Below are positions 28,218 to 60,653 of a stretch of DNA of 64,000 nucleotides, in pieces. The notes under the pieces were generated by a model that searched no databases, had not been told where the DNA came from, and was given only the letters and a program-made list of their open reading frames with translations. Position 1 is the stretch's first letter, and every line of letters starts with the position of its first letter. The position numbers were made by a program, and so were the translations under genes. The stretch covers positions 11,980 to 75,979 of the forward strand of contig JADJHU010000018.1 in assembly GCA_016707425.1 (NCBI GenBank), written 5' to 3'. The stretch comes from Gammaproteobacteria bacterium (GTDB lineage Bacteria; Pseudomonadota; Gammaproteobacteria; Steroidobacterales; Steroidobacteraceae).

Positions 28218-29969
28218 CTACCTGCGTGGCGTGTACCAGATTGGTGAGGACCATGCACGCTCCTGGATGTGTGGGGCCGTGCCGGAGGGCGGTGGAACAC
28301 CATAACGCGTCGCGAGCAGCGTGGACCAACGCGGGGACGGCACTTCGAGCACACGCACGTAGTAGAGCGAGGCCTGGGCGGGATCGAATTCGGGGTCGCG
28401 CCAGAGTGCCTTCAGCTCGGCGGCACCGCGAGGGTCGCTGCCCTCCTTTCCGCTGACCACCCGCACATCGAAAATCCTCTCGCGGGCGGCACCCCGTTCG
28501 CTCCAGACCTTGATGATCTGCAGGCGCTCCAGCATCGCGCCGTAGGGGTCCTTGCGGGCCCAGACCAGGAACCGTGGACCGGTACCATCCGCGCGGCTCG
28601 GAGCCAGCTCGCCGCCCATCGGCACACCGCTGCCATATGCGACGCCCGCCCACTGCCTGCGATTCAGGATGTCATCCGGGAACGACCACCCGGCGAAGAA
28701 GCGGACCTGGATCTGCGTGCCGGAGGTGGCGAAGGTTTCCTTGCGGCGCAGCGCTGCATAGATGGCGGGTCGAGTGTTCTCTTCGGCCCACACACCTGTC
28801 AGAGCGCCGGAGCTCGTCTCGAGGCGTTGCACACTGCCAGAGCTCGTGTTGCCAGGCCGCAGGCGCGCAGCCGCAGCCTCGCGCGTGAACGCTTCAGCCG
28901 CCGGATCGATACCGATCATGTCGCCCGCATAGGCGTTCTCTGCTGCCGTGCTGACCCCATTGTGAAAATCCGTACCTCCCACGACACCGAAGCTGTAGGG
29001 ATTGATGCCGGTACGTTCAGCGATCACGAGGCCGCGGCCAAACGCCTCGCGCGCGTAACTGCCCGACACCTTGCCCACACGCTCGGAGGCGAGAAGATGA
29101 GCGAAGATCTCGAAATCCGCGAACGGATCCGCGCGGGAGAGCAATGGGTGTGTGTCGGACTGACCCTTGCTCTGGACGATCTCGGAGAGCGGCTCGTTGT
29201 CGACGCGGCTCCTGGCATACGCCGCGTCGATCGGCCTGCCGTCGCTGTCAGTCCAGTCATACATGAGGCCGTTGCTCGCGTTGGCGTTGTGCGGGATCGC
29301 CATCGCCTCGTGGCCCTGGGCGCGAATACGCTCCAGCCACGTCCACAGATCCTCCGGATGCTGCGACTCATACGACGAGAACGGCGCTGGAGGAGCGTGG
29401 TCACGGAAGATGACGTTCCGATGCAGGTTCTGCCCGTCAGGGTAGGAGGTCCATTCGAAGCCGATGAAGGTCGTGAACCGGCCTGGTTCGTAGGCGGCGT
29501 TTGCGGCGTCGATTTCCCGCTGCCACGAGTCGGCAAGGAACTGTCCGAGCGGTATGCCCGGGATCTGCCTGCCAGCCTTGATGAAGCTGACGATCGCGCT
29601 CCAGAAGGGGAATGGGCCCTTCTCGAGGTAGACCTTGCCGAGGTCGCTCCTGAATACGGGACTCCCGGGGTCTGCGAGCTGCGAAGAAAGCCCCAGATTC
29701 TCGACGTGATCCGTGATCGCGATGAAGTCCAGCGGCCGGTTCCGGCGAATCGTGCCCCCCATCCAGGATACCGGCTCCCCTCGGGCAAAGCGGTAGGCGT
29801 CCCCGGGGTCGAGAGTGCGGCCATTGAGAATGAAGGAGTCCAGGGAGAAGCTGGTGTGCAGGTGCAGGTCGCCGAAATAGACCTTGCGCGCTGGCGCCGG
29901 TCGTTCCTGCGCGACTCCGAGGCCGTGCAGCGCCATCACTGCGATGACTGCCAGTGCCGACCGCATCAT
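28218..29969 (-). CDS. DUF3604-family (PHP-like metal-dependent) exported protein
   Basis: Start trimmed to MMRSALAVIAVMALHGLGVAQ (signal peptide). VYFGDLHLHTSFSLDSF and ITDHVENLG are typical DUF3604 motifs. Confidence 0.75.
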   Translation of the reverse strand: MMRSALAVIAVMALHGLGVAQERPAPARKVYFGDLHLHTSFSLDSFILNGRTLDPGDAYRFARGEPVSWMGGTIRRNRPLDFIAITDHVENLGLSSQLADPGSPVFRSDLGKVYLEKGPFPFWSAIVSFIKAGRQIPGIPLGQFLADSWQREIDAANAAYEPGRFTTFIGFEWTSYPDGQNLHRNVIFRDHAPPAPFSSYESQHPEDLWTWLERIRAQGHEAMAIPHNANASNGLMYDWTDSDGRPIDAAYARSRVDNEPLSEIVQSKGQSDTHPLLSRADPFADFEIFAHLLASERVGKVSGSYAREAFGRGLVIAERTGINPYSFGVVGGTDFHNGVSTAAENAYAGDMIGIDPAAEAFTREAAAARLRPGNTSSGSVQRLETSSGALTGVWAEENTRPAIYAALRRKETFATSGTQIQVRFFAGWSFPDDILNRRQWAGVAYGSGVPMGGELAPSRADGTGPRFLVWARKDPYGAMLERLQIIKVWSERGAARERIFDVRVVSGKEGSDPRGAAELKALWRDPEFDPAQASLYYVRVLEVPSPRWSTLLATRYGVPPPSGTAPHIQERAWSSPIWYTPRR

Positions 29970-30589
29970 TGTCTGTGCCGCGCTCCCACGCGTCCTTGGC
30001 GAAGATCGTCCATGATACGGTCGACGATGCGGGCTCTGTAGCGCCGGTTGTAATAGGCCGGATCGACGAACATGTTCCACGCAACGCCGCCTGCCAGATG
30101 CAGCAGCATGTTCGCGGCCTGCAACGGCGCGACGGACGCGGGAATCTCGCGGCATTCGAGGGCCTGCCGCAAGTCCTCACAGAAGCGATCCCGTATTCCG
30201 GCCAGGCCTCCGCTCATATCCAGATGATCGTCCGGGTTCCCGAGCGTCATGCTCCAGAAGTGCACTCGCAGCTTCCAGTCCTGCACCGCGGCGGGTGTGA
30301 GAGGGATGAGGCAGCGCAGGCGCGCATGCGAGGCTGCGAGACCGCGCTTCCTGAGCGTGCACCGGCGCTCCTGCTCGATGAACCGTGCGTTCACCCACTG
30401 GAGCGTCTTGCGGAGGATGTCTTTTTTGTCCGCGAAGTGGTGCTCGACCACTCCCTTCGAAATGCCGCAGCGTTCGGCAATGGCTCGGATTGTCGCCCGT
30501 TCGGGACCGGATTCCCCGATGATCTCCGCGGCCACCTGGGCGATACGGTCCTGCCGGTTTCTCTCATACGTGCGTGGCATGCGGGGCAT
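29966..30589 (-). CDS. TetR/AcrR family transcriptional regulator
   Basis: Start trimmed to MPRMPRTYERNRQDRIAQVAAEIIGESGPERATIRAIAERCGISKGVVEHHFADKKDIL. The stop overlaps the DUF3604 start (ATGA). Confidence 0.85.
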   Translation of the reverse strand: MPRMPRTYERNRQDRIAQVAAEIIGESGPERATIRAIAERCGISKGVVEHHFADKKDILRKTLQWVNARFIEQERRCTLRKRGLAASHARLRCLIPLTPAAVQDWKLRVHFWSMTLGNPDDHLDMSGGLAGIRDRFCEDLRQALECREIPASVAPLQAANMLLHLAGGVAWNMFVDPAYYNRRYRARIVDRIMDDLRQGRVGARHRQ

Positions 30590-40488: not shown

Positions 40489-41672
40489 GCGACGATCATG
40501 AGAGAGTACTTCGGCGTGCGTGGGAGAGCTTCTGCGACGAGCTGAAGCGCGCGGTGGATATTCCGCTCCGCGCGCCCGTCCCGGCGCAGGTCGCGACGCG
40601 TGCCGCGGGCTTCGAAGCGCTGGCGCGCAACATCTCTCTTGCACTGAATTTCCATCACGACTACGCGGATCCCCGGTATCCCGAGCTGATTCACTACTTC
40701 GATCCCGTACGGAAGCAGGGCGGTGACAACACCGATGCGGTCTACGTCGGTGCGACCATCAATGGCACCGACACTTATCGGATCAGCGGCGATCGCGGTA
40801 CCGCGCGCTTCTTCGGGATCACTTCGGTCGAGCGCGGCCAGACGCCCTGGGGCGGCAAGGTCGCCCACACTCTTTTCGGCCGCGATCTCGAGGTCGGGCC
40901 GGACGGCTGCTTCGAACTCATTTGCAGCCCGACGCCGCATCCGGGCAACTGGCTGAGGACGACGCCTGAGACCTTCCGGATCACTTTTCGTCAGTTCTTC
41001 GCCGACTGGGAGCACGAACGGCCGATGAAGGCGCGCATCGACCGTCTGACGGGCGACATGAGCCCGCCGGCACCGATCACGCCCGAGAGGCTGGCCGAGC
41101 AGCTGCAGGCCTCGGCGCGATGGGTGGGAGAGTCGCTCGCGTTCTGGGTCCGCATGATCAACATGTGGAAGGTCATGCCGAACACCTTCCGGTCCTACAA
41201 GCAGCTCGCGGACCAGGCCATCGACGCCACGCCTGGCGGCGAACCGATGATTGCCTACTGGGCGCTGCCACCGGACGAAGCGCTGATCGTGCGTGTGCGC
41301 CCGCCCGCCTGTCCGTACTGGGCGGTCGAGTTCGGTAATTTCTGGTGGACGAGCATGGACTATCGCTACCGGCTCTCGAACACGAACTGTCATTATGCCG
41401 AGCTCGAGGACGACGGTGAGCTGATCGTGGTGATCGCCCACGAGGACCCTGGCCTGCCGAACTGGCTCGAGACATCGGGTTTCGCCGAAGGCTACGTCAC
41501 CTACCGCTGGATGCGGGCGGAGAGCTGCCCGGAGCCGAAGGCCACGCAGGTCAAGACGGCGGAGCTGTTCAGATACCTGCCGCAGAACGCCAGGCGCATC
41601 ACCCCGGAGGCGCGGTGCGAGCAGCTCGCGGCCCGTCGTCGTGGCGTCATCAACCGCTTCGGCAATCTCTGA
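40485..41672 (+). CDS. Unplaced family protein DUFx-3 (no leader, cytoplasmic copy)
   Basis: ATGA overlap with the LLM stop. MSDDHERVLRRAWESF... has no signal peptide. Closest paralogue of DUFx-1 (shared HYFDP, RKQGGDN, GDRGTARFF, PHPGNWL, RQFFADWE, ALIVRVRPP, DYRYRLS, DPGLPNWL, RRITPE). Confidence 0.75.
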   Translation: MSDDHERVLRRAWESFCDELKRAVDIPLRAPVPAQVATRAAGFEALARNISLALNFHHDYADPRYPELIHYFDPVRKQGGDNTDAVYVGATINGTDTYRISGDRGTARFFGITSVERGQTPWGGKVAHTLFGRDLEVGPDGCFELICSPTPHPGNWLRTTPETFRITFRQFFADWEHERPMKARIDRLTGDMSPPAPITPERLAEQLQASARWVGESLAFWVRMINMWKVMPNTFRSYKQLADQAIDATPGGEPMIAYWALPPDEALIVRVRPPACPYWAVEFGNFWWTSMDYRYRLSNTNCHYAELEDDGELIVVIAHEDPGLPNWLETSGFAEGYVTYRWMRAESCPEPKATQVKTAELFRYLPQNARRITPEARCEQLAARRRGVINRFGNL

Positions 41673-41692
41673 GGCCGCACGAGGAGAGGCGC

Positions 41693-42952
41693 ATGGCACA
41701 GGAGCGGAACGGAGCGTGGACGCCACCGCCGCGACCGGAGTGGGTCGCCCGCGTCAACGAGGAAGGGCGCAGCATGGACATCGCGAGCCTGGTGCCGCTG
41801 CAGCCGGGCGAGCTTCTCGAGACGGCGATGCGCAACACGGGCCTCTCGGACTTCGGCTCCGGCGAGTGGCGCGAGCCCTTCGAGGTTCTGGTGAAATCGC
41901 TCGAGGAGGAGGCGGAGCTCAACCTCTTCGGACGGCTGATGACGCGCAGCGATCTGCTCATCTGGCTGCAGGAGCGGCTGGAGATCGAGGAGGCATACCG
42001 TCGCCATCCGGAGATCGATGCGGAAGTGCTCGCAGAGCCCGTCTTCATCGTCGGACAGCCCCGCTCCGGCACCTCGATCCTCTTCGAGCTGCTGTCCCAG
42101 GATGCGCAATTCGGCGTGCCGACGAACTGGGAGATCATGTTTCCGTGCCCACCGCCGGAAGCCGCGACCTACCGGACCGACCCGCGGATCGCCAGGGCGG
42201 AGCATCTGCTCACGCAGTGGTATCGGGTTGCGCCGACCTTTCGCACCATGCACGAGCTTGGGGCCACGATCCCCAACGAATGCAAGGTGGCGATGAACTG
42301 CACTTTCGTCAGTGACAACCTCACGGGGATTTTCCAGGTGCCGGGCTACTATGCCTGGCTGATGAAGGCGGACCTGACCTACCCGTACGCCTACTACCGG
42401 CGCATGCTGAAACTCCTGCAATGGCGCAACCCCCGCCGCTACTGGCTCCTCAAGTCGCCGTCGCACATCTGGAGCCTGCCGACGCTGTTCAAGGTCTTCC
42501 CGGATGCCCGCGTGATCTACACTCATCGCGATCCGATTGTGACCCGGGCCTCGGTCACCAATCTGCTCGGCACGATCTACTGGATGCGCAGTGACAAGGT
42601 CTTCGACGCGGAGGCTTTCGAACGCGTGCTCGAGCCGGAGGGCGTCGCAGCCGGGATGAACCTGGTGATCGATCAGATCGAGAAGGGCGAGATCCCGCGT
42701 GCACGGATTCACGACTTCCAGTTCGCGGATCTCATCGAGCGGCCGATCGAGGCGGTGCGTTCGCTCTACGACCGCGCCGGACTGCAGTGGACCGCCGCAG
42801 CGCAGGCCGGCATGGAGGCTTACCTCGCACACAAGCCGAAGGGAAAGTTCGGTGCGCACCGCTACGAGGTGAGCGACGGTGCGCAGATCGAGCGCGAGCG
42901 CCGGCTCTATGCGCGCTACCAGCGATTTCACGGCGTTCGGAACGAAGTCTGA
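41693..42952 (+). CDS. Sulfotransferase family protein (cytoplasmic, about 419 aa), copy 2
   Basis: Start trimmed to MAQERNGAW after GAGGAGAGG. GQPRSGTSILF and YTHRDP motifs. Co-linear with copy 1 (shared NTGLSDFG, LLQWR, LKSP/CPQH blocks). Confidence 0.8.
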   Translation: MAQERNGAWTPPPRPEWVARVNEEGRSMDIASLVPLQPGELLETAMRNTGLSDFGSGEWREPFEVLVKSLEEEAELNLFGRLMTRSDLLIWLQERLEIEEAYRRHPEIDAEVLAEPVFIVGQPRSGTSILFELLSQDAQFGVPTNWEIMFPCPPPEAATYRTDPRIARAEHLLTQWYRVAPTFRTMHELGATIPNECKVAMNCTFVSDNLTGIFQVPGYYAWLMKADLTYPYAYYRRMLKLLQWRNPRRYWLLKSPSHIWSLPTLFKVFPDARVIYTHRDPIVTRASVTNLLGTIYWMRSDKVFDAEAFERVLEPEGVAAGMNLVIDQIEKGEIPRARIHDFQFADLIERPIEAVRSLYDRAGLQWTAAAQAGMEAYLAHKPKGKFGAHRYEVSDGAQIERERRLYARYQRFHGVRNEV

Positions 42953-48307: not shown

Positions 48308-49077
48308 TGGCATGGTGGAACAGGTTCTCTCTCGAAGGCAGGACGGCGCTCGTGACGGGCGGCTCGCGTGGCATCGGCCGTGCCACGGCGGAGTTGCTGG
48401 CGCAGGCGGGTGCGCACGTGGTCGTCTCTTCCCGCAACGGCGCCGACCTGGACGAGGTGGTGAGAGGGATCCGGTCGGCGGGAGGGAAGGCGGAGGCCAT
48501 CCCTGCGCACATCGGGCGGATCGAGGACGTCGAGGCCCTGCTCGCCGAGCTCGAGCGCCGGGCGCTGCACGTCGACACCCTCGTGAACAATGCCGGCATC
48601 AGTCCACTCGTGAAGGAGCCCTTCTCTGGCACCTCGCTCGAGCTCTGGCAGAAGATCATGGACGTGAATCTGCGCGGGCCGTTTCTGCTCAGCGCGCGTC
48701 TCGGGCGCGCCATGGCTGCTCGCCGCTCGGGCTCGATCGTCAACATCAGTTCCACGGGAGCGTTGCGGACGAGCCCGCTCATCGGGGCCTACTGCGTCTC
48801 GAAGAGGGCGGTGAATACGCTCACCGAAGTGTTCGCCAAGGAATTCGGGACGCACGGCGTGCGGGTGAACACGATCAGCTGTGGTCTCGTCGAGACCGCC
48901 ATGGGTGACTGGACGATCAAGGACCAGAAGGCCTACGACTTCACACTGGGCATGACGCCGCTCGCGCGCCATGCCCAACCGGACGAGGTGGCCTATGCGG
49001 TGCTGTTCCTCGTCAGCGGCGCGGCGAGCTTCGTCACGGGCGCTAATCTCGCCGTGGACGGCGGGACGGGCATCTAG
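48304..49077 (+). CDS. SDR family oxidoreductase
   Basis: ATGA overlap with the upstream SDR. GRTALVTGGSRGIGRA, NNAG and YCVSKRA. Confidence 0.85.
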   Translation: MMAWWNRFSLEGRTALVTGGSRGIGRATAELLAQAGAHVVVSSRNGADLDEVVRGIRSAGGKAEAIPAHIGRIEDVEALLAELERRALHVDTLVNNAGISPLVKEPFSGTSLELWQKIMDVNLRGPFLLSARLGRAMAARRSGSIVNISSTGALRTSPLIGAYCVSKRAVNTLTEVFAKEFGTHGVRVNTISCGLVETAMGDWTIKDQKAYDFTLGMTPLARHAQPDEVAYAVLFLVSGAASFVTGANLAVDGGTGI

Positions 49078-51199
49078 ATCGCCGCGGCGACCTCCGCGGC
49101 GCTGCGCATCGCACCCTCGATGTAACTCACGCCGCGGCAGTCGCCGACCACGTGCACCGCGAAGCTCGCCGCGCGCAGCTGCTCCGCGAGCGCCAGGTCT
49201 CCGCTCGCGCCCTTGGCGACGATGACGTGATCAGCCAGGATCGCGGCACCCTGGCCTGCGGCATCCGTGAAGCGCACGCACTCGGCCTCGATGCGGATAT
49301 CGCTCGCGCCAGCACGCAATGTGACGCCGTGCTCTTCGAGCTCTTCGATGAGGCGCATACGTCGCACGATCGTGAGACCTGCTCCGAGTCGCGGGACGTC
49401 ATCGACCACTCCCACCGTGCGACCACGCTCGCTCAGGAACTCGGCCAGTTCGAGGCCGACGAGCTCGCCGCCGACGATGGCGATGCGCTTGCCGAGTGGC
49501 ATCCACTGGTGCGTCGCCCTGCGTACGAAGTCGAGGTTGGCCGTCATGCCGGTGGCGGCGCCGATCTTCGTCGCGAGCCGCGTCGTCCAGCCGGTCTTCT
49601 TCTCCAGGGCCTCCGAGCTCTCTCCCAGTACGAGTCGCCGCAGATCGTCGCCGCTGAAGACGTGAGGGAGATCACTGCCCGGGATCGGGGGCATGCTGCG
49701 ACGGGCGCCGGTTGCGACGACGACCGCATCTGCCGAGAGAGATCGCAGGAGTTCGGGCGTCGCAACCGTGCCGAGGCGTACTTCCACGTGCGAGGCTTCG
49801 ACCTGGCGCGCGAGCCAGTCGAGCAGCCGCTCGTTGGCAGCGTAAGCCAGTGCCGCGAAGCGGAGCGTTCCACCCAGCTGATCACCACGCTCGAGCAGCA
49901 CGACCTCGTGCCCGGCGCGATCGAGGCGGCGCGCTGCTTCCATGCCGCCGGGTCCGCCGCCCACGACCACCACGCGTTTGCGCGTCGCCGCGGCGGGCGG
50001 TGCCGGCCGGAGTGACTCGAAACACGTCTCGGGATTCACGGCGCAGCGCGCATGCTCCTGGATGTAGATTGCGCTGATACACGTATAGCAATAGATGCAG
50101 GGCAGAACATCCTGAGGGCGGCCTTCCTTCAGCTTCCTCGGGAGATGCGGGTCAGCGAGGAGTTTTCGACCCATCGCCACGAAGTCGATGGAGCCGTCGG
50201 CGATGCGCGCATCGCCCACTTCGGGCTCGACACGACCGGAGGCGATGACGGGAATACGGACTGCCGCCTTGATGGCCGCAGCAAAGGCAGGTTCACACCT
50301 GGCTCATGTGGAGTGTGCGAGGCGGAGTGGAGCTTTCCATGGTCCGTATCGTGGTAGGCCGTGACGGTGATCGCGTTCGCACCCGCGTCCTGGGCCATGC
50401 ACGCCGTGCGTTTCGCATCGTCGATGGTGATCCCGCCCTCCTTGCCGACCTCCCGGGAATCGAGCTTGCACCACATCGCAAAGTCGGGGCCGACCGCGGC
50501 GCGCACGGCGCGCAGCACCTCGAGAAGGAAGCGCACACGGTTCTCGAGGCTGCCGCCGTATTCGTCCGTGCGCCGGTTCGAGCGCGGTGAGACGAAAGAG
50601 GAGAGGAGGTAACCGTGGCCGCCGTGGACTTCGACGCCGTCGGCACCCGCACGCTTCGCGCGTACCGCGGCTGCTGCAAACTGATTCACGACGGTGCGGA
50701 TGTCGTCGGCCGTCATGACCCTGAAGTCCACGTTCCTGATCTGGGGTGCGGGTGACTTGGCGATCTCCTCGAGCAGCCACATGCTGCTGACGTCCCTCTT
50801 CGGCGGTTCGGGGAGTGAAGGCACCCAGAGCGGCCGCCCCGCCTTCATGTCTTCGGGTGCGACGAGACCACCGTGATGCAGCTGCAGCGAGAACTTCGCC
50901 CCGTGGCGGTGGATCGCTTCGGCCATCGCCGCGATTCCGGGGATGAAGCGGTCGTCGGAGATCGCGATCTGGCCCGGCTGATTTCCACCGGCCGGCCAGG
51001 CGACGCCTGCCACCCCCGTGTTCACCAGCGCCACGCCACCGCGAGCCTGCTCCTCGTGAAAGGCACGGATACGCTCGCCGCAGGTGCCATCGGGTTCGGC
51101 GAGATTGACGCCCATGGCGGTGACGATGATGCGGTTGCGGAGCTCGAGTGGCCCGATACGGCCGGGAGAGAGGAGGTGTGCGAAAGCTCCAGATGCCAT
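49074..51199 (-). pseudogene. Two-domain NADH:flavin oxidoreductase (OYE FMN domain + FAD/NAD(P) domain, 2,4-dienoyl-CoA reductase-like), split by a frameshift near 50290-50300
   Basis: N-terminal track ORF 50129..51199 (LRNRIIVTAMGVNL, LHHGG, EVHGGHGYLLSSF) decays into junk after ...HTPHEPGV. The expected continuation PAFAAAIKAAVRIPVIASGRVEPEVGDARIADGSIDFVAMGRKLLADP...CIYCYTC...VVVVGGGPGGMEAA is in the frame of track ORF 49074..50219. Confidence 0.75.
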
Positions 51200-51518
51200 G
51201 GCTCAGGCTCCGTGTCTTCGGTGGGTCCCGACCCGAAAATCCTGGCCGGGAGCGGGTGGCAGAAGGATACGCGGTCGGCGTCGACAGGCGCAAAATCTTC
51301 GCGCACGCGATCCCTGCCGCTGCCTGCGGATGGCCGGACTGGAAGAAATCGGCACTTTGCGCAGAGCCCTGATCGGGACTACTCTCAGCGTGACGCCAGC
51401 AATGTGATCGGCGCCGCGACGGAGGGCATGTTCGTGGAGACATTTGAGTGACGGGTGATGACAGGCGCCGGCGCGCGCCGCGCGCGGGACTCCGAAGGCT
51501 TCTGCCGCCAGCGGGCGC

Positions 51519-52856
51519 GTGGGGCGCAGGGAGCTGTTCAGTGCTGCGCTGGCAGGCGGCGCTGCGGCAATGTTGCCGTCGACATCGATGGCGGAAGTGG
51601 CGGGGAAGGCGGCAACGGCAGGCGGGCTGCCCGAGGGCCTCCTGTCCTGGGGGCAGTATCTCGATCTCCTGCGACCGGCTGGCGAGCTCGCGCGCATCAC
51701 GCTGGAGCCGGAAAGCGAGCAGCTTCGCGCGGAGCTCTACCGACAGCTGGCGATGAACCTGTCGTCGGGCTATTTCATGTATTTCCAGTCCGACGCCCGC
51801 TATCCGGACTGGATGCCGTTCCTGAACTCGGTCTTCACTCTGCAGCCGAATCCCGACGATACGTACTGGCTCGCGCATCTGGATGACAAGGGGACCTATC
51901 GCATCTCGGGCACGCGCGGGACGGTGCACATCCTGTCGTTCGTGCTGACGCCGCATCTGATGGGTGGCTCCGACGAGCTCGCCGAGTCTCTAAGCAAGGA
52001 ATCTGCCGGGAAGCCTGCGCAGCCGGCGAACAATGCGGGTTTCCATGATGTAAGCGAGCTCGCGCTCGGTGCCAACGGCGAGTTCGAGGTGCTGCTTTCC
52101 CGACGGCGCCCAGATGGCTACACGGGCGACTGGTGGCCCCTGGAGGCCGGCGTCTCGAGCATCATGGTGCGGCAGAGATCTTACGACTGGGGCAATGAGC
52201 GGGACGCGCGTTTCGCCATCGAGCGGGTGGATCCGATCGCACCCGATGCGCCGTTGAAGCCACGCATGAGTGCGGCGGAGATCGACCAGAGGCTGAGGCG
52301 ACTCCTGGGTGAGTACACGGCGCGGCTTTCGCGCATGTGGCTCACGTACCAGAAGAATGTCGTGGACCGCGGGATCGTCAACCGCTTCGAATTCACGGGC
52401 CTTGGGGGATCGCTGCCGGTGCAGGTGTACTGGCAGGGCATGTACGAGCTCGGACCGGAGGAGGCGCTGATCCTCGAGACCGACATGCCGAAGAAGCAGC
52501 GCTACTGGAACGTGCAGCTCAACGATGCCCTGTGGAATGCCACTGAGTTCATCTACCGCCAGAGCAGCCTGAATGGCCATCAGGCGCGGCTGGACGCGGA
52601 TGGCAGGTTCCGGGCGGTCATCTCGCTGCAGGATCCGGGCGTCTGGAACTGGCTCGATCCGGCCGGTTACCTCGAGGGCATGGTCATCGGGCGATGGTAC
52701 GAAGCGGACTCGCATCCCATGCCGACACTGACGCGAGTCCCGTTCGCGAAGGTGCGCGAGCATCTGCCGCCGGACACGGTCATGGTCACGCGTGAACAAC
52801 GCGCCGGACAGCTGCGCAAGCGGCGCATCGGCGGGCAACTGCGTCGGCGCTGGTGA
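51519..52856 (+). CDS. Unplaced family protein DUFx-4 (short RR leader, divergent copy)
   Basis: GTG start. GRRELFSAALAGGAAAMLPSTSMA leader. Shares EEALILET, DPGVWNWLDPAGYLEGMVIGRW and VTREQR blocks with the other copies. Confidence 0.7.
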   Translation: MGRRELFSAALAGGAAAMLPSTSMAEVAGKAATAGGLPEGLLSWGQYLDLLRPAGELARITLEPESEQLRAELYRQLAMNLSSGYFMYFQSDARYPDWMPFLNSVFTLQPNPDDTYWLAHLDDKGTYRISGTRGTVHILSFVLTPHLMGGSDELAESLSKESAGKPAQPANNAGFHDVSELALGANGEFEVLLSRRRPDGYTGDWWPLEAGVSSIMVRQRSYDWGNERDARFAIERVDPIAPDAPLKPRMSAAEIDQRLRRLLGEYTARLSRMWLTYQKNVVDRGIVNRFEFTGLGGSLPVQVYWQGMYELGPEEALILETDMPKKQRYWNVQLNDALWNATEFIYRQSSLNGHQARLDADGRFRAVISLQDPGVWNWLDPAGYLEGMVIGRWYEADSHPMPTLTRVPFAKVREHLPPDTVMVTREQRAGQLRKRRIGGQLRRRW

Positions 52857-52863
52857 GGGCATC

Positions 52864-55227
52864 ATGAGATTCGATCGAAGCATGTTCGTTGCCTTGAGTC
52901 TGCTTGCGGGGCTCGCGGTTTCGGCAGTCCGGGCGCAGGGAGTGGCATCGACGGCGGGCGGCGTCGTGCTGCCGAAGACACCGCCGCCTTTCACCGGTAC
53001 GATCGGGCGCACCTACGCCGAGTCGAAACCCGCCGCACTTCAGCCGGTGCGCGCCCCCGAAGGCGCGCCCAACGTGCTGCTGGTCATGACAGACGATGTA
53101 GGCTTCGCCGCATCGTCCACTTTCGGCGGGCCGATTCCCACGCCGAATCTCGACCGGCTTGCGGCGAGCGGCCTCAAGTACAACCGCTTCCACACGACAG
53201 CCATGTGTTCACCGACACGTGCGGCACTCCTCACGGGGCGCAACCACCACGCGGTGGGCAGCGGCATCGTCACCGATCTGGCGGCGGGCTATCCGGGCTA
53301 TTCGGGCGTCATGCCCAAGAGCGCTGCGACGGTGGCGGAGGTGCTGAAGCAGAGCGGCTACAACACCGCGATGTTCGGCAAGCACCATAACGTGCAGGCA
53401 GGCGCATCGTCCGCGGCAGGACCCTTCGACCAGTGGCCGACGGGCCTGGGCTTCGAGTACTTCTACGGCTTCGTGGCCGCCGAGGCGAACCAGTTCAGTC
53501 CGGCGCTCTACCGCGGGACCTCGCGCGTGGCGGCACCCAAGGGTGTCATGCTCGACCAGGCACTGATCGATGACGCCATCCGCTGGGTGCACAACCAGCA
53601 GGCCGGTGACCCGGACAAGCCCTTCTTCATCTACCTTGCGCCGGGAACGGCGCATGCGCCGCATCAGGCACCCAGGGAGTGGATCGCGAAGTTCAAGGGT
53701 CGCTTCGACCAGGGCTGGGATGAGCTGCGTGATGAGATTCTCGCTCGCCAGAAGGCACTCGGTGTGGTGCCGCAGGACGCACAGCTCACGCCGCGACCGC
53801 CGGGGATTCCTGCGTGGGAGGCCGTCTCGCCGGGCCTGAAACGCACGACCGCCCGCATGATGGAAGTCTACTCAGGGATGCTCGCGCACCAGGACTATCA
53901 GTTCGGGCGGCTCGTGGACGAACTCACACGCATGGGCAAGCTCGACAATACCCTGGTGATTTTCATCGAAGGTGACAACGGGGCCTCGGCCGAGGGTGAG
54001 GTTTTCGGTCACACGAATCCGATGGGCAATTTCGCGAATGGGGCGGCGGAGACCGAGGCCGAGCAGCTCGCCATGCTCGACGAGCTCGGCGGCCCGAACA
54101 CCACCGAGAACTATGCGGCGGGCTGGGCGTGGGCGCTGGATACGCCGCTCAAGTGGACAAAGCAGATTGCCTCGCACCTGGGTGGCGTGCGCAATGGCAT
54201 GGTGCTCTCCTGGCCGGCACGCATTGCCTCGCGAGGGCTTCGCACCCAGTTTCATCACGTGATCGATGTGGCACCCACCATCCTCGAGGCCGCCGGCGTG
54301 CCGCAGCCGACGAGCGTCAATGGCGTACCGCAGCAGCGCGTGGATGGCATCAGCATGGTTTACAGCTTCGCGTCCGCCGATGTCCCGGGGCGCCGCCGGA
54401 CGCAGTACTTCGAGATGATGGGCAACCGCGCCATCTATCATGACGGCTGGATGGCTTCCAGCACCCCGACGCGCGTCACCTGGATGCGTCAGCGGCTCGC
54501 GAACAAGGCGACGCCTGAGGACTACGACTGGGAGCTCTACGATCTCGAACACGATTTCTCTCAGGCCGATGATCTCGCATCCCGGAATCCGGGGAAGCTC
54601 GCCGAGCTGCAGGCGCTGTTTGACCGTGAGGCGCAGCGTAACCACGTCTATCCGCTCGACGACCGGCTCGATCTGACGCGCTTCGCGGCTGCGGTGGCGC
54701 TCGGGGCGAAGCCGCGTCCGAGCTATGTCTACTGGGGCAAGGACGTCACCGTTCCGGCCGAACTCGCGCCGAACTTCCGGGGCTCCTTCACACTCACTGC
54801 GGAACTCGACACCACTGCGGGCGACAGCGGGGTGCTCGCGGCGCTCGGCGGGAAGTTCGCGGGCTGGAGTTTCTATCTGAAGGAGGGGAAGCCGGTGGTG
54901 CTCATGGCCGGCGCGCATCGGCCAGACCGGGTCTTCCGCGTGGAGGCAGGTGAGCGCGTGCCACGGGCACCGACGACCGTGCGCTACGACTTTGCCTCGG
55001 AAGGCGTCGGGCGGGGCGGCCTCATGCGCATCAGCATCGACGGGCGCGAAGTGGGACAGGGGCGGATCGAGCGCACCATCGTGCGGACTGTCGAGATGAC
55101 CGATACCTTCGACGTCGGCTTCGATGGCGATACGCAGGTCACCGACGAGTATGCAGGCGACGGGCGCTTCGGCGGTGAAATCCGCAAACTGACCGTCGAG
55201 CAACGGCCGCTCATGACTGGAGGGTGA
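52864..55227 (+). CDS. Arylsulfatase (Cys-type, periplasmic), copy B
   Basis: Start trimmed to MRFDRSMFVALSLLAGLAVSAVRAQG. MTDDVGFAASS and HTTAMCSPTRAALLTGRN. Confidence 0.9.
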   Translation: MRFDRSMFVALSLLAGLAVSAVRAQGVASTAGGVVLPKTPPPFTGTIGRTYAESKPAALQPVRAPEGAPNVLLVMTDDVGFAASSTFGGPIPTPNLDRLAASGLKYNRFHTTAMCSPTRAALLTGRNHHAVGSGIVTDLAAGYPGYSGVMPKSAATVAEVLKQSGYNTAMFGKHHNVQAGASSAAGPFDQWPTGLGFEYFYGFVAAEANQFSPALYRGTSRVAAPKGVMLDQALIDDAIRWVHNQQAGDPDKPFFIYLAPGTAHAPHQAPREWIAKFKGRFDQGWDELRDEILARQKALGVVPQDAQLTPRPPGIPAWEAVSPGLKRTTARMMEVYSGMLAHQDYQFGRLVDELTRMGKLDNTLVIFIEGDNGASAEGEVFGHTNPMGNFANGAAETEAEQLAMLDELGGPNTTENYAAGWAWALDTPLKWTKQIASHLGGVRNGMVLSWPARIASRGLRTQFHHVIDVAPTILEAAGVPQPTSVNGVPQQRVDGISMVYSFASADVPGRRRTQYFEMMGNRAIYHDGWMASSTPTRVTWMRQRLANKATPEDYDWELYDLEHDFSQADDLASRNPGKLAELQALFDREAQRNHVYPLDDRLDLTRFAAAVALGAKPRPSYVYWGKDVTVPAELAPNFRGSFTLTAELDTTAGDSGVLAALGGKFAGWSFYLKEGKPVVLMAGAHRPDRVFRVEAGERVPRAPTTVRYDFASEGVGRGGLMRISIDGREVGQGRIERTIVRTVEMTDTFDVGFDGDTQVTDEYAGDGRFGGEIRKLTVEQRPLMTGG

Positions 55228-55229
55228 GG

Positions 55230-57557
55230 ATGCCGTCGATGGTCCGCCTCGCGCGGGATACCGCGCTCGTTTTGACTGCGCTCATGTCTATGCCGGCAGC
55301 CTTCGGCCAGACGGCCGCAAGCTCTGCAGTGCGGGTCGCAGCGCCCGCGCCACCGTTGCAGGTGCAGGCACCAAAGGGCGCGCCGAACGTGGTCGTCGTA
55401 CTCCTGGACGACGTGGGTTTCGCGGCGTCCTCGACTTTCGGTGGCCCTGCTGAAACGCCTGTGCTCGATGCCCTCGCCCGCGAGGGTCTGCGCTACAACC
55501 GCTTCCACACTACCGGCATCTGCTCGCCGACGCGCGCAGCGCTCCTCTCCGGGCGCAACGCGCACGCCGTCGGGATCGGCGCCGTGATGAACTCTGCCGA
55601 TGAGCGGCCTGGCTATCAGGGCGTGCACGCGCGCGATGCGGCCACGATGGCCGAGATCCTGCGGGATAACGGCTACAACACGGCGGCCTTCGGCAAGTGG
55701 CACCAGACGCCCGATTGGGAGATCTCGCAATCGGGTCCCTTCGATCGCTGGCCCACCGGGCAGGGTTTCGAGAAGTTCTACGGTTTCCTCGGGGGCGAAA
55801 CGGATCAATTCGAACCCACCCTCATCGAGGGCACGACGCCCGTGATGCGCCCGGCCGGCAAGGGCTACCACCTGACCGAGGATCTTGCCAACCGCGCGAT
55901 AGCATGGATGCGCGTCCAGCACTCGGTGACGCCTGAGAAGCCTTTCTTCCTCTACTTCGCTCCGGGCGCAACGCATGCGCCGCTCCAGGCTCCGGGCGAG
56001 TGGATCGAGAAGTACCGCGGACGTTTCGAACAGGGCTGGGACCGCCTGCGCGAGGAGATCCTGGCGCGACAGAAAGAGCTTGGCGTGGTGCCGAAGGGCA
56101 CAGTGCTCACGCCCCGGCCCGAGGGGCTGCCGGCCTGGGAGGCACTCGGCGCGGATGACAAGAAGATCGCCTCGCGCCTGATGGAAGTCTACGCGGGCTT
56201 TCTCGCCCACACCGATGCGCAGGTCGGGCGCATCGTGCAGGCGCTCAAAGAAGCTGGTGAGTTCGACAACACGCTCTTTGTCTACATCGTGGGCGACAAT
56301 GGCGGCTCGGCCGAAGGTGGCATGCTCGGCAGCCTGAACTACATGGGCGCCATCCAGGGGCTGCAGGAGGATCGGGCGCAGATGCTCGGCCGCCTCGAGA
56401 GCTTCGGGGGTCCCGCGACCTATCCACATTACCCGGCAGCCTGGGCCTGGGCGATGGATACGCCCTTTCAGTGGACCAAGAGCGTCGCGTCACACCTCGG
56501 CGGCACGCGCAATCCGATGGTGATCACCTGGCCGAAGCGCATCCACGATCACGGCGGGCTGCGCAGCCAGTTCGGACACGTGAACGACATCCTGCCGACC
56601 GTGCTGGAAGCTGCCGGCCTCGACGCACCCGCCGTGTTCCAGGGCATCCGCCAGAAGCCGCTCGATGGCACGAGTCTCGTCTACAGCTTCGCCGATGCGA
56701 AGGCGCCCGAGCGCCACACCACTCAGTACTTCGAGATCTTCGGGCATCGGGCGATCTATCACGAGGGCTGGATGGCCTCGGCGTTTCACGCGCGGCTTCC
56801 GTGGCAGGTCATCTCGATGAGCCAGAAGCCTTTCGAGTCCGACCGCTGGGAGCTCTACGATCTCAGGCGCGACTTCTCCCAGGCGCACGATCTCGCCGCG
56901 AAGGAGCCCGAGCGTCTCGAAGCTCTGCAGGCGCTCTTTATGCAGGAGGCCGAACGCAATCAGGTCCTGCCCTTGAAGGGCCAGGTGCTGAATGCGAAGC
57001 TCCCGAGTCTCACGGGCGGGCGTACGGAGTTCACCTACTATTCCGGCGCGGTGGGCATCCCGGAGAAGGGCGCACCGCCGATCTTCAATCGCTCGTGGAG
57101 CGTGTCGGCGACGATCGAGGTGCCCGGCTCCGAGGCGCGAGGTGTGATCGCTGCCATGGGCGGAGCGCCTGCGGGCTGGTCGCTCTATCTCGACTCTGAA
57201 GGTAAGCCCGCCTTCCACTATCGCGCCTTCGAGGCCGGTTCGATCGAGCTCGCGGGCGGGAAGCCCCTCGGGGCCGGCCGGCACGTCGTGCAGGTGGACT
57301 TCGATTACGACGGCGGGGGCTTCGGCAAGGGCGGCACCGCGCGCCTCACGCTCGACGGTGAGCCGCAGGGCGAGGGGCGGGTGGCCACCACGCCGCCGGC
57401 CTACTTCTCCATCAACGAGACCTTCGACATCGGCCTCGACACCGGCTCTGCCGCAGGGCGCTATCCGTCGGATGCGGCGCCCGGCTATCCCTTCAGTGGC
57501 GGGCGCATCGAACGCGTGGACGTGCGCCTGCGCGCGGCCACGGTGGGGCGGCTGTGA
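55230..57557 (+). CDS. Arylsulfatase (Cys-type, periplasmic), copy C
   Basis: MPSMVRLARDTALVLTALMSMPAAFGQ. LLDDVGFAASS and HTTGICSPTRAALLSGRN. It starts 2 nt after the copy B stop. Closest paralogue of copy A. Confidence 0.9.
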   Translation: MPSMVRLARDTALVLTALMSMPAAFGQTAASSAVRVAAPAPPLQVQAPKGAPNVVVVLLDDVGFAASSTFGGPAETPVLDALAREGLRYNRFHTTGICSPTRAALLSGRNAHAVGIGAVMNSADERPGYQGVHARDAATMAEILRDNGYNTAAFGKWHQTPDWEISQSGPFDRWPTGQGFEKFYGFLGGETDQFEPTLIEGTTPVMRPAGKGYHLTEDLANRAIAWMRVQHSVTPEKPFFLYFAPGATHAPLQAPGEWIEKYRGRFEQGWDRLREEILARQKELGVVPKGTVLTPRPEGLPAWEALGADDKKIASRLMEVYAGFLAHTDAQVGRIVQALKEAGEFDNTLFVYIVGDNGGSAEGGMLGSLNYMGAIQGLQEDRAQMLGRLESFGGPATYPHYPAAWAWAMDTPFQWTKSVASHLGGTRNPMVITWPKRIHDHGGLRSQFGHVNDILPTVLEAAGLDAPAVFQGIRQKPLDGTSLVYSFADAKAPERHTTQYFEIFGHRAIYHEGWMASAFHARLPWQVISMSQKPFESDRWELYDLRRDFSQAHDLAAKEPERLEALQALFMQEAERNQVLPLKGQVLNAKLPSLTGGRTEFTYYSGAVGIPEKGAPPIFNRSWSVSATIEVPGSEARGVIAAMGGAPAGWSLYLDSEGKPAFHYRAFEAGSIELAGGKPLGAGRHVVQVDFDYDGGGFGKGGTARLTLDGEPQGEGRVATTPPAYFSINETFDIGLDTGSAAGRYPSDAAPGYPFSGGRIERVDVRLRAATVGRL

Positions 57558-57647
57558 GCCACGCGTGTCCCGCCAAGCCGTACGCAGGCGGGCGGCTGAG
57601 ACCACCGCCATCTGGCGTGACCTGCAGTTCGACCCGGCGCTGAGGCA

Positions 57648-58580
57648 GTGCCGGACATGCGCCGCGGACTGCGGGCTTTCTTCCGCGAGCCGACCGTGCA
57701 GTTCCTGCTGCTCGGGGCGCTGCTCTATGGCGCGAGCCTGCTGCATGCGCGGCTGAACGATCCGCGGCGGATCGTGATCGGCGCGGCGGATGTCGCGCGC
57801 CTCGGGCAGCTATACGCGCAACAGTTCGGTGTGGCGCCTTCGCCCTCCCAGCTCGAGTGGCTGATCGAGCGCCATGTTCGCGACGAGGTGCTCTACCGCG
57901 AGGGCCTCGCGCTCGGGCTCGGCGAGGCCGACGAGGTGGTGCGGCGGCGCATCGTGCAGAAGATGGAGTTCCTGAGCGATGACGAAAGTCCGGTCGCCGC
58001 ACCGACCGCCGCGGAGCTGCGCGCCTTCTATGCCGCGCATGCCGAGCGCTATCGCAGCCCGGCGCGCGTGAGCTTCACGCAGCGCTACTTCTCGCCCGAT
58101 CCTGGCGGTGAGGCTGCGGCCCGTGAGCGCGCTGCGCGCGCACTCGCACTGCTGGCGGCGCAAGGCGGCAGTGGCGCGGCGACGGCCGGCGACCCCTTCT
58201 GGGACCGCGAGTATCTCGAGCGCGCAGATCTCCTCGAGATCGAACGGGTCTTCGGGCGGGGCGAGCTTTCCACCCGCGTCTTCGAGCTTCCCGAGGGCCG
58301 CTGGTCCGGGCCGCTGCGCTCGGGTTTCGGCTGGCATCTCGTGCGCATCGAGGCTCGCGAGGCACCGCGGCTCGCTTCCTTCGCCGAGATGGAATCCGCG
58401 CTGCGTTCGGACTGGCAGGACGAGCAGCGCGCGCAGCGCAAGCGTGCGGGGCTCGAGCGTCGGATGCAGGGCTATCGGATCGTGCGCGAGTACGCAACCC
58501 GGGACGCAGGTGCTGCGCAGGGTGCGAGTACCGCGAGGGCCGGTGGGGCGACCCCCGTCCTCGAGAGCACCGGCCAGTGA
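57648..58580 (+). CDS. Membrane-anchored parvulin-type peptidyl-prolyl isomerase-like protein
   Basis: 310 aa. N-terminal TM (VQFLLLGALLYGASLL). The C-terminal rotamase-like block is GRWSGPLRSGFGWHLVRI. Confidence 0.65.
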   Translation: MPDMRRGLRAFFREPTVQFLLLGALLYGASLLHARLNDPRRIVIGAADVARLGQLYAQQFGVAPSPSQLEWLIERHVRDEVLYREGLALGLGEADEVVRRRIVQKMEFLSDDESPVAAPTAAELRAFYAAHAERYRSPARVSFTQRYFSPDPGGEAAARERAARALALLAAQGGSGAATAGDPFWDREYLERADLLEIERVFGRGELSTRVFELPEGRWSGPLRSGFGWHLVRIEAREAPRLASFAEMESALRSDWQDEQRAQRKRAGLERRMQGYRIVREYATRDAGAAQGASTARAGGATPVLESTGQ

Positions 58581-59608
58581 GCGGGCGTGTACGGCTCTTG
58601 CGCTCGCTCGCACTCACGCTAATCCTGTGGACTGCGGCCGCGGCCGTACCGGCGCACGAGGTGCGCCCAGCGCTCTTCGAGATCCGTCGCAGCACGAACT
58701 CGCAGTGCGAGATTCTCTGGAAGCAGCCAGTCGCGGGCGAGCTGGCTGTGCGACTGGTGCCGCGGCTTTCGGCAGGCTGGCTCGATGCCCCACCTGCAAG
58801 CGAGTCGCGCGCACCCGGGCATCGGGCCCTGCGCTGGTTGCGGGCAGATTGCCCGCTCGAACCCCTCGAGGCGCAGTCGCTTGCAGTCGAGGGCCTCGAT
58901 GCGACGCTCACCGACGTGCTGGTGCGCGTGGACTTCGGCGACGGACGGAGGCTCCAGCACATCCTCCGTCCGGGAGATGCGCCGCTGGCGCTCGCAGGCA
59001 CCAGCGTCGCGCGCACGGCGGGCGCCACGCCCGGGAGTGGGGCTTATTTCCGCCTCGGCGTGGTACACATCCTCGAGGGCGTCGATCATCTGGCTTTCGT
59101 GCTCGCGCTCGTGCTGCTCGTCGGGCTGCGCGCGCGGCTGGTCACGGCCGTAACCGGCTTTACCGTGGCACACAGTTTTACGCTCGGGGCCACCGCACTC
59201 GGGTTGCTTCGGCCCTGGCCGGCTTTCATCGAAATGCTGGTCGCGCTCAGTATCCTGTTCGTGGCCGCCGAGGCGCTGCGTGCCCGAGGCGCCGCGCCGG
59301 GCACGCTTACCCAGCGCTGGCCCGAGCTCGCTGCCCTCGGCTTTGGCCTCCTGCACGGCTTTGCCTTTGCGGGTGCGCTGAGCGAAATCGGGCTGCCACG
59401 AGACGAAACACTGCTGGCGATCCTGCTCTTCAACCTCGGAGTGGAGGCCGGACAGCTCGTCTTCATTGCCGCGGTGCTCGCCGTGAGCCTGGCCGTGCTG
59501 CGCGTGAATTTCCGCCTGCCGCCACGGATGGCCGAGCTCCCCGCGTATGTGATCGGCGCCTGCGCGGGTTTCTGGACGATCGAGCGAGCACTCGTCGTGT
59601 TTGCGTGA
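58577..59608 (+). CDS. HupE/UreJ family membrane protein with an extra N-terminal periplasmic domain
   Basis: GTGA overlap with the upstream gene. Signal peptide. The C-terminal half contains GVVHILEGVDHLAFVLALVLL, TVAHSFTL and GLLHGFAFAG, typical of HupE/UreJ-2. Confidence 0.75.
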   Translation: MSGRVRLLRSLALTLILWTAAAAVPAHEVRPALFEIRRSTNSQCEILWKQPVAGELAVRLVPRLSAGWLDAPPASESRAPGHRALRWLRADCPLEPLEAQSLAVEGLDATLTDVLVRVDFGDGRRLQHILRPGDAPLALAGTSVARTAGATPGSGAYFRLGVVHILEGVDHLAFVLALVLLVGLRARLVTAVTGFTVAHSFTLGATALGLLRPWPAFIEMLVALSILFVAAEALRARGAAPGTLTQRWPELAALGFGLLHGFAFAGALSEIGLPRDETLLAILLFNLGVEAGQLVFIAAVLAVSLAVLRVNFRLPPRMAELPAYVIGACAGFWTIERALVVFA

Positions 59609-59650
59609 GGTCCTGTTGCCCGAGGCGGGCGCCCCTGCGACACTGAGCTT

Positions 59651-60145
59651 ATGTCCGATGCTTTCACAGCCCAGCTCGACAGCAGCTCGCTCACTGCCGT
59701 CCTCCATCACGCCGGCGGCGAGCTCGCGCGCCGGCACGAGGCGCTGTGGCAGGCGGTCTGGCGGCAGAAGCATGTGCCAGCGCCCGTGCTCGAGCTCTGC
59801 CGGCTGCGTCTCGCGCAGCTGCACGGCGCCGTGCACGAACTCGAGGCTCCACCACCCCGCGATGCCCGCGAGAGGCTCGATGCGGCGAAGAGCAGGAGCG
59901 TCATCACAGGTTCATGGGTCCGTGAGTCCTGCCTCTCGCCAGCCGAGCGCAGTGCACTCGAGTTTGCCGAGGTTTACGGCCAGGATCCGCAGGCCATCAC
60001 GGACGAGCTCGCCGCGGCGGTGAAGGAGCACTTCGGAGATGCGGGGCTCGTCGCCCTGATCGAGGCACTCGGGGTGATCGACGGGCGCATCCGGCTGGCG
60101 ATGATGCTCGGTGCGTTGCTGCCACGGGAGGAGAATCATGAGTGA
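59651..60145 (+). CDS. Carboxymuconolactone decarboxylase (AhpD-like) family protein
   Basis: 164 aa, all-helical pattern. LELCRLRLAQLHG and ALEFAEVY blocks. It lacks the second Cys of the CxxC motif. Confidence 0.65.
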   Translation: MSDAFTAQLDSSSLTAVLHHAGGELARRHEALWQAVWRQKHVPAPVLELCRLRLAQLHGAVHELEAPPPRDARERLDAAKSRSVITGSWVRESCLSPAERSALEFAEVYGQDPQAITDELAAAVKEHFGDAGLVALIEALGVIDGRIRLAMMLGALLPREENHE

Positions 60146-60653
60146 GGGACTGCGGGCGGGAACGCCCGGGCGCGCGACCGGGCACGTGATTCGTGACAGC
60201 AGCCTGGGGCTCGTCCCGGAGACGCTCCAACCGATCCTCGATCTGCAGGATGCCATCTGGCATCGGGCGAGCGTCGGCCCCGCGATCATGGAGATGCTGA
60301 GGCTGCGCAATGCGCGCACCGTGAACTGCGTCTTCTGCAAGAGCGTGCGCTACGACATCGCACGCGCTGACGGCCTCACCGAGGACAAGGTCGAGCAGAT
60401 CGATGACGGGTTCTCGCACAGCACACTCTCCGAGCGCGAGAAGCTCGTGCTCGCCTTCGCGGACCTCTACCTGCGCACACCTGATCGGGTCGATCCTGCG
60501 CTTGCCGCGCGGCTGCGCCGCGAATTCACGCCTGAGCAGATCGCACACATGGCGATCGGTCTTACCACCTGCCATGCGCTCTCGCGCTGCGCCGTGAGTC
60601 TCGGGGGAATGCCCGAAAGCCTGCCGGTAATGGAGATGCCGGTTCCGGCGTAA
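60138..60653 (+). CDS. Carboxymuconolactone decarboxylase (AhpD-like) family protein
   Basis: Start trimmed to MSEGLRAG. LRLRNARTVNCVFCKSV (CxxC) and EREKLVLAFADLY. 8-nt overlap with the upstream CMD gene. Confidence 0.75.
   Translation: MSEGLRAGTPGRATGHVIRDSSLGLVPETLQPILDLQDAIWHRASVGPAIMEMLRLRNARTVNCVFCKSVRYDIARADGLTEDKVEQIDDGFSHSTLSEREKLVLAFADLYLRTPDRVDPALAARLRREFTPEQIAHMAIGLTTCHALSRCAVSLGGMPESLPVMEMPVPA

Follow-up and report, generated by a model that had tools for sequence, protein, structure and literature searches.

Pseudomonas aeruginosa PAS (AtsA; PDB 1HDH) is a cytoplasmic arylsulfatase of 536 residues, periplasmic sulfatases are encoded in loci with TonB-dependent receptors (TBDRs), and proteins of the DUF1214 family accompany Stf1-type sulfotransferases in cassettes that may also include an SDR gene. 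The locus described here, Module D, can be compared with each of these systems. It occupies positions 51519-57557 of a 64,000-nucleotide stretch (the window) of contig JADJHU010000018.1 from a gammaproteobacterium of the family Steroidobacteraceae (assembly GCA_016707425.1; genome G000 below) and consists of a gene of the DUF1214 superfamily, DUFx-4, followed by two sulfatase genes, sulfB and sulfC. With about even confidence we read Module D as a unit for processing organosulfates in the periplasm, where DUFx-4 would recognise or convert the same compounds as the sulfatases. Evidence from outside the module connects the family of DUFx-4 with sulfate-ester metabolism, and the DUFx-4/sulfB/sulfC arrangement as such was found only in this genome.

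The CSPTR formylglycine motif and the GK-H signature are common to sulfC and PAS. PAS aligns from its residue 4 over the whole chain and has no counterpart of the N-terminal 50 residues of sulfC, and both sulfB and sulfC differ from it in their Sec-type leaders and in an extra C-terminal beta-sandwich of ~200 residues. The closest solved relative of DUFx-4 is 6ANS from Burkholderia cenocepacia (TM-score 0.83, 26% identity), a structural-genomics entry of 390 residues, about the length of leaderless family members, for which no function is recorded and which is hence silent on mechanism. Only a remote fold likeness (Foldseek 1e-9 to 1e-10, probability 1.0) extends to VPA0735 and VPA0106 of Vibrio parahaemolyticus (2P3Y, 3VB9, 3U07), two uncharacterised structural-genomics targets of DUF1254-DUF1214 composition; TM-scores of ~0.4, identities of 9-11% and the lack of a DUF1254 match in DUFx-4 led us to reject its description as a canonical two-domain protein of that kind. 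Relative to the Stf1-DUF1214 cassette, with which it has the DUF family in common, Module D encodes an exported DUF protein and holds sulfatases in the position of the sulfotransferase. In TBDR loci with periplasmic sulfatases, such as L100 below, sulfB-sulfC orthologues and the closest relatives of DUFx-4 take the slot directly behind the receptor, whereas Module D lacks an adjoining receptor gene; receptors are present at L095, L096, L100, P0003, P0004 and P0014.

The three genes lie on the plus strand: DUFx-4 at 51519-52856 (445 amino acids from a GTG start, opening MGRRELFSAALAGGAAAMLPSTSMAEV), sulfB at 52864-55227 (787 amino acids) and sulfC at 55230-57557 (775 amino acids). The gaps of 7 and 2 nucleotides between them, already given in the original prediction, were confirmed from the coordinates and starts of the open reading frames. 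The best start of sulfB is ATG 52864, with a GAGGG Shine-Dalgarno sequence 6 nucleotides ahead and the DUFx-4 stop codon within GGTGAGGGCATCATG; that of sulfC is ATG 55230, directly preceded by GGAGGGTGAGG with a GGAGGG Shine-Dalgarno sequence, and an alternative GTG at 55224 would make sulfC overlap sulfB. Both Shine-Dalgarno sequences fall in, or just past, the last codons of the preceding gene, and a third-position GC content of 0.81-0.83 in all three frames supports real coding.

The link between the DUF family and sulfate esters emerges from its neighbours in this and other genomes. Seven of the 16 paralogues in G000 have a Sulfotransfer_3 gene within 300 nucleotides, against 0.15 expected at random (P<5e-5), and the closest paralogue of DUFx-4, on contig C4 (59-62% identical), has a sulfotransferase directly adjacent. 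Next to DUFx-4 itself there is no Sulfotransfer_3 gene; its downstream neighbour is a sulfatase, and the nearest sulfotransferase gene, at 41615-42952, is ~8.5 kb upstream. In 66 of 84 further DUF loci, 80 from other genomes (ranging from Steroidobacteraceae to Sphingobium and Paraburkholderia) and four from metagenome contigs, a sulfotransferase is encoded within 10 kb, mostly as the next gene downstream, and this partner is of the Stf1 type (PDB 2Z6V, 4e-41; 2ZQ5, 1e-37). When 85 loci from other genomes were divided by the predicted location of the DUF protein, an Stf1-type gene was directly adjacent to 48 of the 65 cytoplasmic members and to one of the 20 exported ones (Fisher 3e-8, shared ancestry uncorrected). 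Since cytoplasmic members adjoin such sulfotransferases in so many loci, the connection of the family with sulfate-ester metabolism holds irrespective of Module D.

Exported members would have lost the sulfotransferase partner; instead, they are found after TonB-dependent receptor genes and, more than once, beside sulfatase genes. P0003, which is 70% identical to DUFx-4 and belongs to the same clade, stands in the order TBDR, DUF with Tat leader, sulfatase, DUF; P0004 (68% identical) follows ECF sigma/FecR and TBDR genes and precedes a second DUF; P0014 (60% identical) is framed by a TBDR and an MFS gene. Other copies are located in beta-oxidation/P450 clusters (P0006 and P0048) or, in Sphingobium, at the end of a series running from CoA-transferase to OYE, SDR and DUF with Tat leader, and in locus L165 TetR, SDR and ECH genes come after a fragment 75% identical to DUFx-4. 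Four paralogues of G000 are exported: DUFx-1 and DUFx-2, which stand either side of a TBDR gene, DUFx-4, and a Sec-type copy on contig C2. The last of these ends a seven-gene same-strand string (C2:162614-177047, corresponding to L177:2614-17047, minus strand) composed of a TBDR with STN domain, a sulfC paralogue (76%), DUF3604, the alpha and beta subunits of a TPP-dependent E1 component, an SDR+PQQ alcohol dehydrogenase and DUFx, an order that resembles a periplasmic route of desulfation and subsequent alcohol oxidation. The penultimate gene of this string is a single frame of 1092 amino acids (L177:4134-7412, minus strand) in which residues 7-201 form an SDR domain and residues 471-1067 a complete PQQ alcohol-dehydrogenase propeller; the two are separate genes in L097, and the frame may be a real fusion or a PQQ gene with an internal start.

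Besides Module D, junctions of DUF and sulfatase genes have thus arisen with other sulfatase lineages, two of them involving exported copies (P0003 and C2). The sulfatase beside P0003 has 562 amino acids, a leader and a CAPTR motif, and is just 31% identical to sulfB, sulfC and their window paralogue sulfA. In two other metagenome-assembled genomes, at L112:7282-10796 and L113:7079-10635, a gene for an exported sulfA-like sulfatase is followed after 20 nucleotides by a DUF gene whose product is 49-53% identical to DUFx-4 and leaderless, i.e., cytoplasmic, and which is split in two frames in L113.

DUFx-4 belongs to the 6ANS-like branch within the DUF1214 superfamily, so that the DUFx of the original prediction can be assigned to a family. 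The Pfam DUF1214 match (PF06742) is marginal (1.6e-6, 29.0 bits against a cut-off of 25) and covers residues 319-394 only; a precomputed PF06742 label is carried by 117 of the 120 DUFx-4 homologues among the matches listed, and 6ANS is the sole solved sequence match (2e-36). Foldseek with the AlphaFold (AF2) model of DUFx-4 (pLDDT 79.6) likewise retrieved 6ANS first (E 2e-34) and VPA0106/VPA0735 only remotely, and gave no match of known function; the first 35 residues of the model are disordered or helical and lie outside the fold. None of the four window paralogues matched a DUF1254 domain at E<=0.01, NCBIfam contains no model matching DUFx-4 or the sulfotransferases, and the literature searched for DUF1214 and DUF1254 yielded no functional study. 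The family is large (858 of 8,000 scored candidates at E<=1e-10), and its four paralogues in the window, at 28-32% identity to DUFx-4, retain invariant polar residues that include N111, D113, Y116, R218, D223, R236, R347, S349, N352, D372, N377 and R392, a pattern more in keeping with a specific polar site than with a pocket that is greasy throughout. Four proteins of 584-591 amino acids (P0027, P0038, P0046 and P0063) combine a DUFx-4 homologue with SnoaL/NTF2-like domains, and these fusions support a small hydrophobic substrate. The 16 copies in the 3.35 Mb genome of G000, set against none in 19 of 20 genomes of the same family or order, represent a marked expansion or acquisition in this lineage; in-frame stops occur in two or more of the copies (C4:161712-162752 and C8:45327-45623).

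Export of DUFx-4 through the Tat pathway is likely. Its leader reads G-R-R-E-L-F, then SAALAGGAAAML, then S-M-A, and the predicted Tat signal (51519-51593, plus strand) corresponds to MGRRELFSAALAGGAAAMLPSTSMA, with cleavage presumably before the following EV. Each of the nine longer relatives that were read (P0002-P0006, P0008, P0014, P0048 and P0111) has an RR-x-[LF]-[LF] motif with a hydrophobic stretch, aligned with GRRELF of DUFx-4, and the genome encodes TatC (7.8e-69); the Tat-type, exported nature that had been proposed for DUFx-4 is very probably correct. In the maximum-likelihood tree DUFx-4 groups with P0002, P0003, P0004 and P0005 in a clade with 100/99 support whose members all bear leaders, and over the whole DUF tree leaders were gained or lost at least five times. 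Most of the 858 homologues are ~390 amino acids long and start near residue 37-41 of DUFx-4, and are therefore cytoplasmic.

The two sulfatases are, by their sequence features, Sec-exported, PAS-like and Cys-type, ordinary for their kind and predicted to hydrolyse sulfate esters. Both match Pfam Sulfatase (PF00884) far above the cut-off of 25 bits (sulfB 1.1e-59, 202.7 bits; sulfC 2.3e-63, 214.7 bits). The CSPTR sequences at 53206-53220 (sulfB) and 55521-55535 (sulfC) agree with the C/S-x-P-x-R formylglycine motif and are invariant across an alignment of 26 sulfatases, and hydrophobic Sec-type leaders can be read from the sequences; the earlier description of two enzymes of about 780 amino acids with C-S-P-T-R motifs and Sec leaders is borne out. 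Copy A, or sulfA (15058-17355; 765 amino acids; Pfam Sulfatase 3.1e-59), has the like architecture that had been noted and lies on the minus strand, which amends the earlier account. Its identity is 52% with sulfB and 60% with sulfC, and that of sulfB with sulfC and sulfA is 49-52%. Among proteins of known structure, sulfC is closest in sequence to 1HDH (phmmer 7e-70, 30% identity) and 7ALL (4e-70), the latter taken to be the S1_4 sulfatase BT4683; other sulfatase subfamilies score 1e-34 or weaker. The AF2 model of sulfC (pLDDT 74) matches 1HDH with a TM-score of 0.83 at 30% identity in Foldseek, and 1HDH belongs to SulfAtlas S1_4 (PMC5066984).

The alignment with 1HDH spans sulfC residues 51-566 only, and residues ~595-770 (57012-57539, plus strand) outside it are confidently modelled as a beta-sandwich made of strands only, with pLDDT mostly 81-96 and one block of 65 over blocks 620-770. 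This domain is possibly concanavalin-A-like, judging from sub-threshold Pfam Laminin_G_3 matches in four of the 26 family members (best 2.8e-4); Foldseek matches of the full-length model are dominated by the catalytic domain. The long C-terminal extension singled out in the original prediction is indeed present in sulfB, sulfC and sulfA but proves to be no peculiarity of theirs, such extensions being usual throughout a very large family of arylsulfatases (all 8,000 scored candidates at E<=1e-30). The 120 matches listed in this search are 731-793 amino acids long, mostly labelled "arylsulfatase", and come from Cupriavidus, Burkholderia, Sphingomonas, Novosphingobium, Halioglobus and Steroidobacteraceae. 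NCBIfam gave no equivalog for the sulfatases, its arylsulfatase and choline-sulfatase equivalogs scoring only far below threshold. Two PF03781 FGE-sulfatase matches above the cut-off are encoded on contigs C15 and C1, unlinked to Module D. A further long sulfatase at C1:52891-55258, 52-59% identical to sulfB, is found in two adjacent pieces with a break at 53460 and is probably frameshifted. DUF3604 genes, another uncharacterised family travelling with sulfC-type sulfatases, stand directly beside them in L101, L102 and G000 (C2:169822-171741), and the window has a DUF3604 gene at 28218-30155.

Orthologues of the sulfB-sulfC pair occur in three other metagenome-assembled genomes (MAGs) of Steroidobacteraceae (L095, L096 and L097), with 78-83% identity for sulfB and 79-83% for sulfC. 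In L095 and L096 a divergent TBDR gene lies upstream of the pair, and an unrelated cytoplasmic DUF is found downstream, past an opposite-strand gene; in L097 nothing was recognised upstream, and the pair runs on into two AhpD/CMD-like genes, CMD1 and CMD2. In a Halioglobus MAG (L100) the order is FecR/TBDR, sulfB, sulfC. Long sulfC-type sulfatases, often as tandem pairs, are also present in 38 of 50 DUF-bearing genomes, a search in which every count of DUF-sulfatase adjacency is to be read as "at least". Large multihaem-cytochrome proteins with HEAT repeats are encoded beside the orthologous TBDR/sulfB/sulfC loci at L095:2036-4528 and L097:8075-10297, the L097 copy having TPR repeats as well.

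A CMD1-CMD2 pair is also found in the window, at 59651-60653, downstream of Module D. Comparison of window 57648-60653 with L097:2378-5590 shows that in L097 the two AhpD/CMD-like genes come directly after sulfC, while the window has genes for a PpiC-type rotamase and a HupE/UreJ_2 membrane protein interposed (57648-59608), which suggests an insertion. The nearest candidate receptor gene, a putative TBDR, starts at ~61761, ~4 kb downstream of the module, and none lies within it. Directly upstream of DUFx-4 are CoA-transferase, SDR, SDR and divergent OYE-like genes. The last of these encodes a flavoprotein resembling OYE and 2,4-dienoyl-CoA reductase (49074-51199, minus strand) that is split over two overlapping frames, an FMN domain at 50129-51199 and a FAD/NAD domain at 49074-50219, as a result of either a frameshift or a sequencing error; an intact 672-residue version of this architecture adjoins a DUFx-4 relative in L004. 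The intergenic region 51200-51518 between this apparently frameshifted gene and DUFx-4 is presumably the promoter site of Module D, given its position. A scan of 51000-58000 found neither a sigma-70-like promoter nor a convincing terminator inside or after the module, and an inverted-repeat search upstream of it gave no usable operator candidate.

Under the interpretation favoured here, DUFx-4, sulfB and sulfC would form a translationally coupled, probably co-transcribed three-gene unit acting in the periplasm on organosulfates, with sulfB and sulfC matured by one of the two FGE-domain proteins encoded elsewhere in the genome. Sulfate esters of a hydrophobic, lipid-like compound would enter through a TonB-dependent receptor and be hydrolysed by sulfB and sulfC, and DUFx-4 would be an accessory recognising or converting the same class of molecule, be it the sulfate ester or the resulting alcohol. 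It is read in this way because of its family context, which is sulfotransferases for the cytoplasmic members and TBDRs and sulfatases for the exported ones. The genes around Module D (CoA-transferase, SDRs, OYE-type reductase, acyl-CoA dehydrogenases and luciferase-like monooxygenases), together with the PQQ alcohol dehydrogenase of related strings, suggest that the alcohol part of the substrate is hydrophobic, for instance a steroid, bile alcohol or alkyl chain. The original prediction that the exported DUFx acts on, binds or delivers the same sulfated substrate as the sulfatases therefore gains from the predicted export, from the sulfate-ester link of the family and from the other DUF-sulfatase junctions. 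Its argument from tight linkage fares worse, as the DUFx-4/sulfB/sulfC linkage is not conserved, orthologous pairs occur without DUFx-4 and DUF-sulfatase proximity in G000 exceeds chance only weakly.

Several observations weigh against a functional partnership of DUFx-4 with the sulfatases. DUFx-4 is absent upstream of the sulfB-sulfC orthologues in L095, L096, L097 and L100, its tight coupling with the pair being specific to G000, and the genes downstream of its own nearest relatives vary (DUF, MFS transporter, TetR/SDR/ECH); for these two reasons it is not an obligate sulfatase partner. A sulfatase gene lies within 10 kb in three of the 84 DUF loci and beside a DUF gene in none of 55 JGI metagenome loci, whose closest contigs are too short to inform, and in G000 proximity is marginally above chance (two of 16 copies within 1.5 kb, P=0.018). 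In L112 the DUF protein beside the exported sulfatase is cytoplasmic, and no characterised homologue or fold relative of DUFx-4 was found, so that any activity ascribed to it is conjecture. The lack of DUFx-4 beside orthologous sulfatase pairs also speaks for the main rival reading, in which the adjacency is a by-product of rearrangement in a catabolic island, two blocks having been joined that share a pathway only broadly and have no direct interplay. Module D does look like a junction of two conserved blocks, CoA-transferase/SDR/SDR/OYE/DUF and sulfB-sulfC-(CMD pair): the gene order of the Sphingobium exported copies parallels the genes upstream of DUFx-4, and the CMD pair follows the sulfatases in both L097 and the window. 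A junction without direct interplay, DUFx-4 belonging to the upstream block and sulfB-sulfC to a separate TBDR/CMD block, is possible but rather doubtful in our estimate. The 7-nucleotide gap and the Shine-Dalgarno sequence overlapping the DUFx-4 stop argue for selected co-expression, the recurrence of DUF-sulfatase junctions with other sulfatase lineages, two with exported copies, also counts against it, and with so strong an association between the family and sulfotransferases a connection to sulfate esters is the simpler reading.

The same tight linkage ahead of two sulfatases is the sole support for regarding DUFx-4 as a dedicated maturation or folding factor of sulfB and sulfC, acting in formylglycine formation or periplasmic folding. 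This we consider highly improbable and reject, as sulfatases of this type, orthologues and paralogues alike, are found without DUFx-4, separate FGE genes exist elsewhere in the genome, and the family is mostly cytoplasmic and paired with sulfotransferases rather than sulfatases. Any joint action with the sulfatases would also fail if DUFx-4 were cytoplasmic, translated from Met18 and thus unable to meet periplasmic enzymes. The public gene call, P0001 (428 amino acids, from MLPSTS), does begin at Met18, and, having lost the RR motif (window 51519-51570), would have DUFx-4 annotated as cytoplasmic. The Shine-Dalgarno sequence of GTG 51519 is weak, a start there gives an n-region of just two residues, and most family members, at ~390 amino acids, have no leader. 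A cytoplasmic DUFx-4 is nevertheless very unlikely, given that the motif and hydrophobic stretch recur in every longer relative read, including the four other members of its clade, and that the first 35 residues fall outside the modelled fold.

It is tempting to extend the reading of Module D as an organosulfate-processing unit to the family as a whole, albeit as a speculation that we consider unlikely. The 6ANS-like DUF1214 proteins might constitute a new class whose substrates are lipid-like alcohols in sulfate-ester form, with elimination or displacement of the sulfate as one conceivable reaction. Cytoplasmic members would act on esters made by the Stf1-type partner, sulfation then serving as catabolic activation, including in the mycobacterial cholesterol-regulon cassette, and exported members on environmental organosulfates; proteins such as DUFx-4 would thereby work alongside sulfatases, behind TonB-dependent receptors. 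For a family with an available crystal structure and no functional literature found, the neighbour pattern offers a testable theme, sulfate esters of hydrophobic alcohols. If true, this would bear on the role of bacterial Stf1-type sulfotransferases inside lipid and steroid catabolic clusters, as well as on the uptake and degradation of environmental organosulfates, such as steroid, bile-alcohol and alkyl sulfates, by wastewater and soil Proteobacteria.

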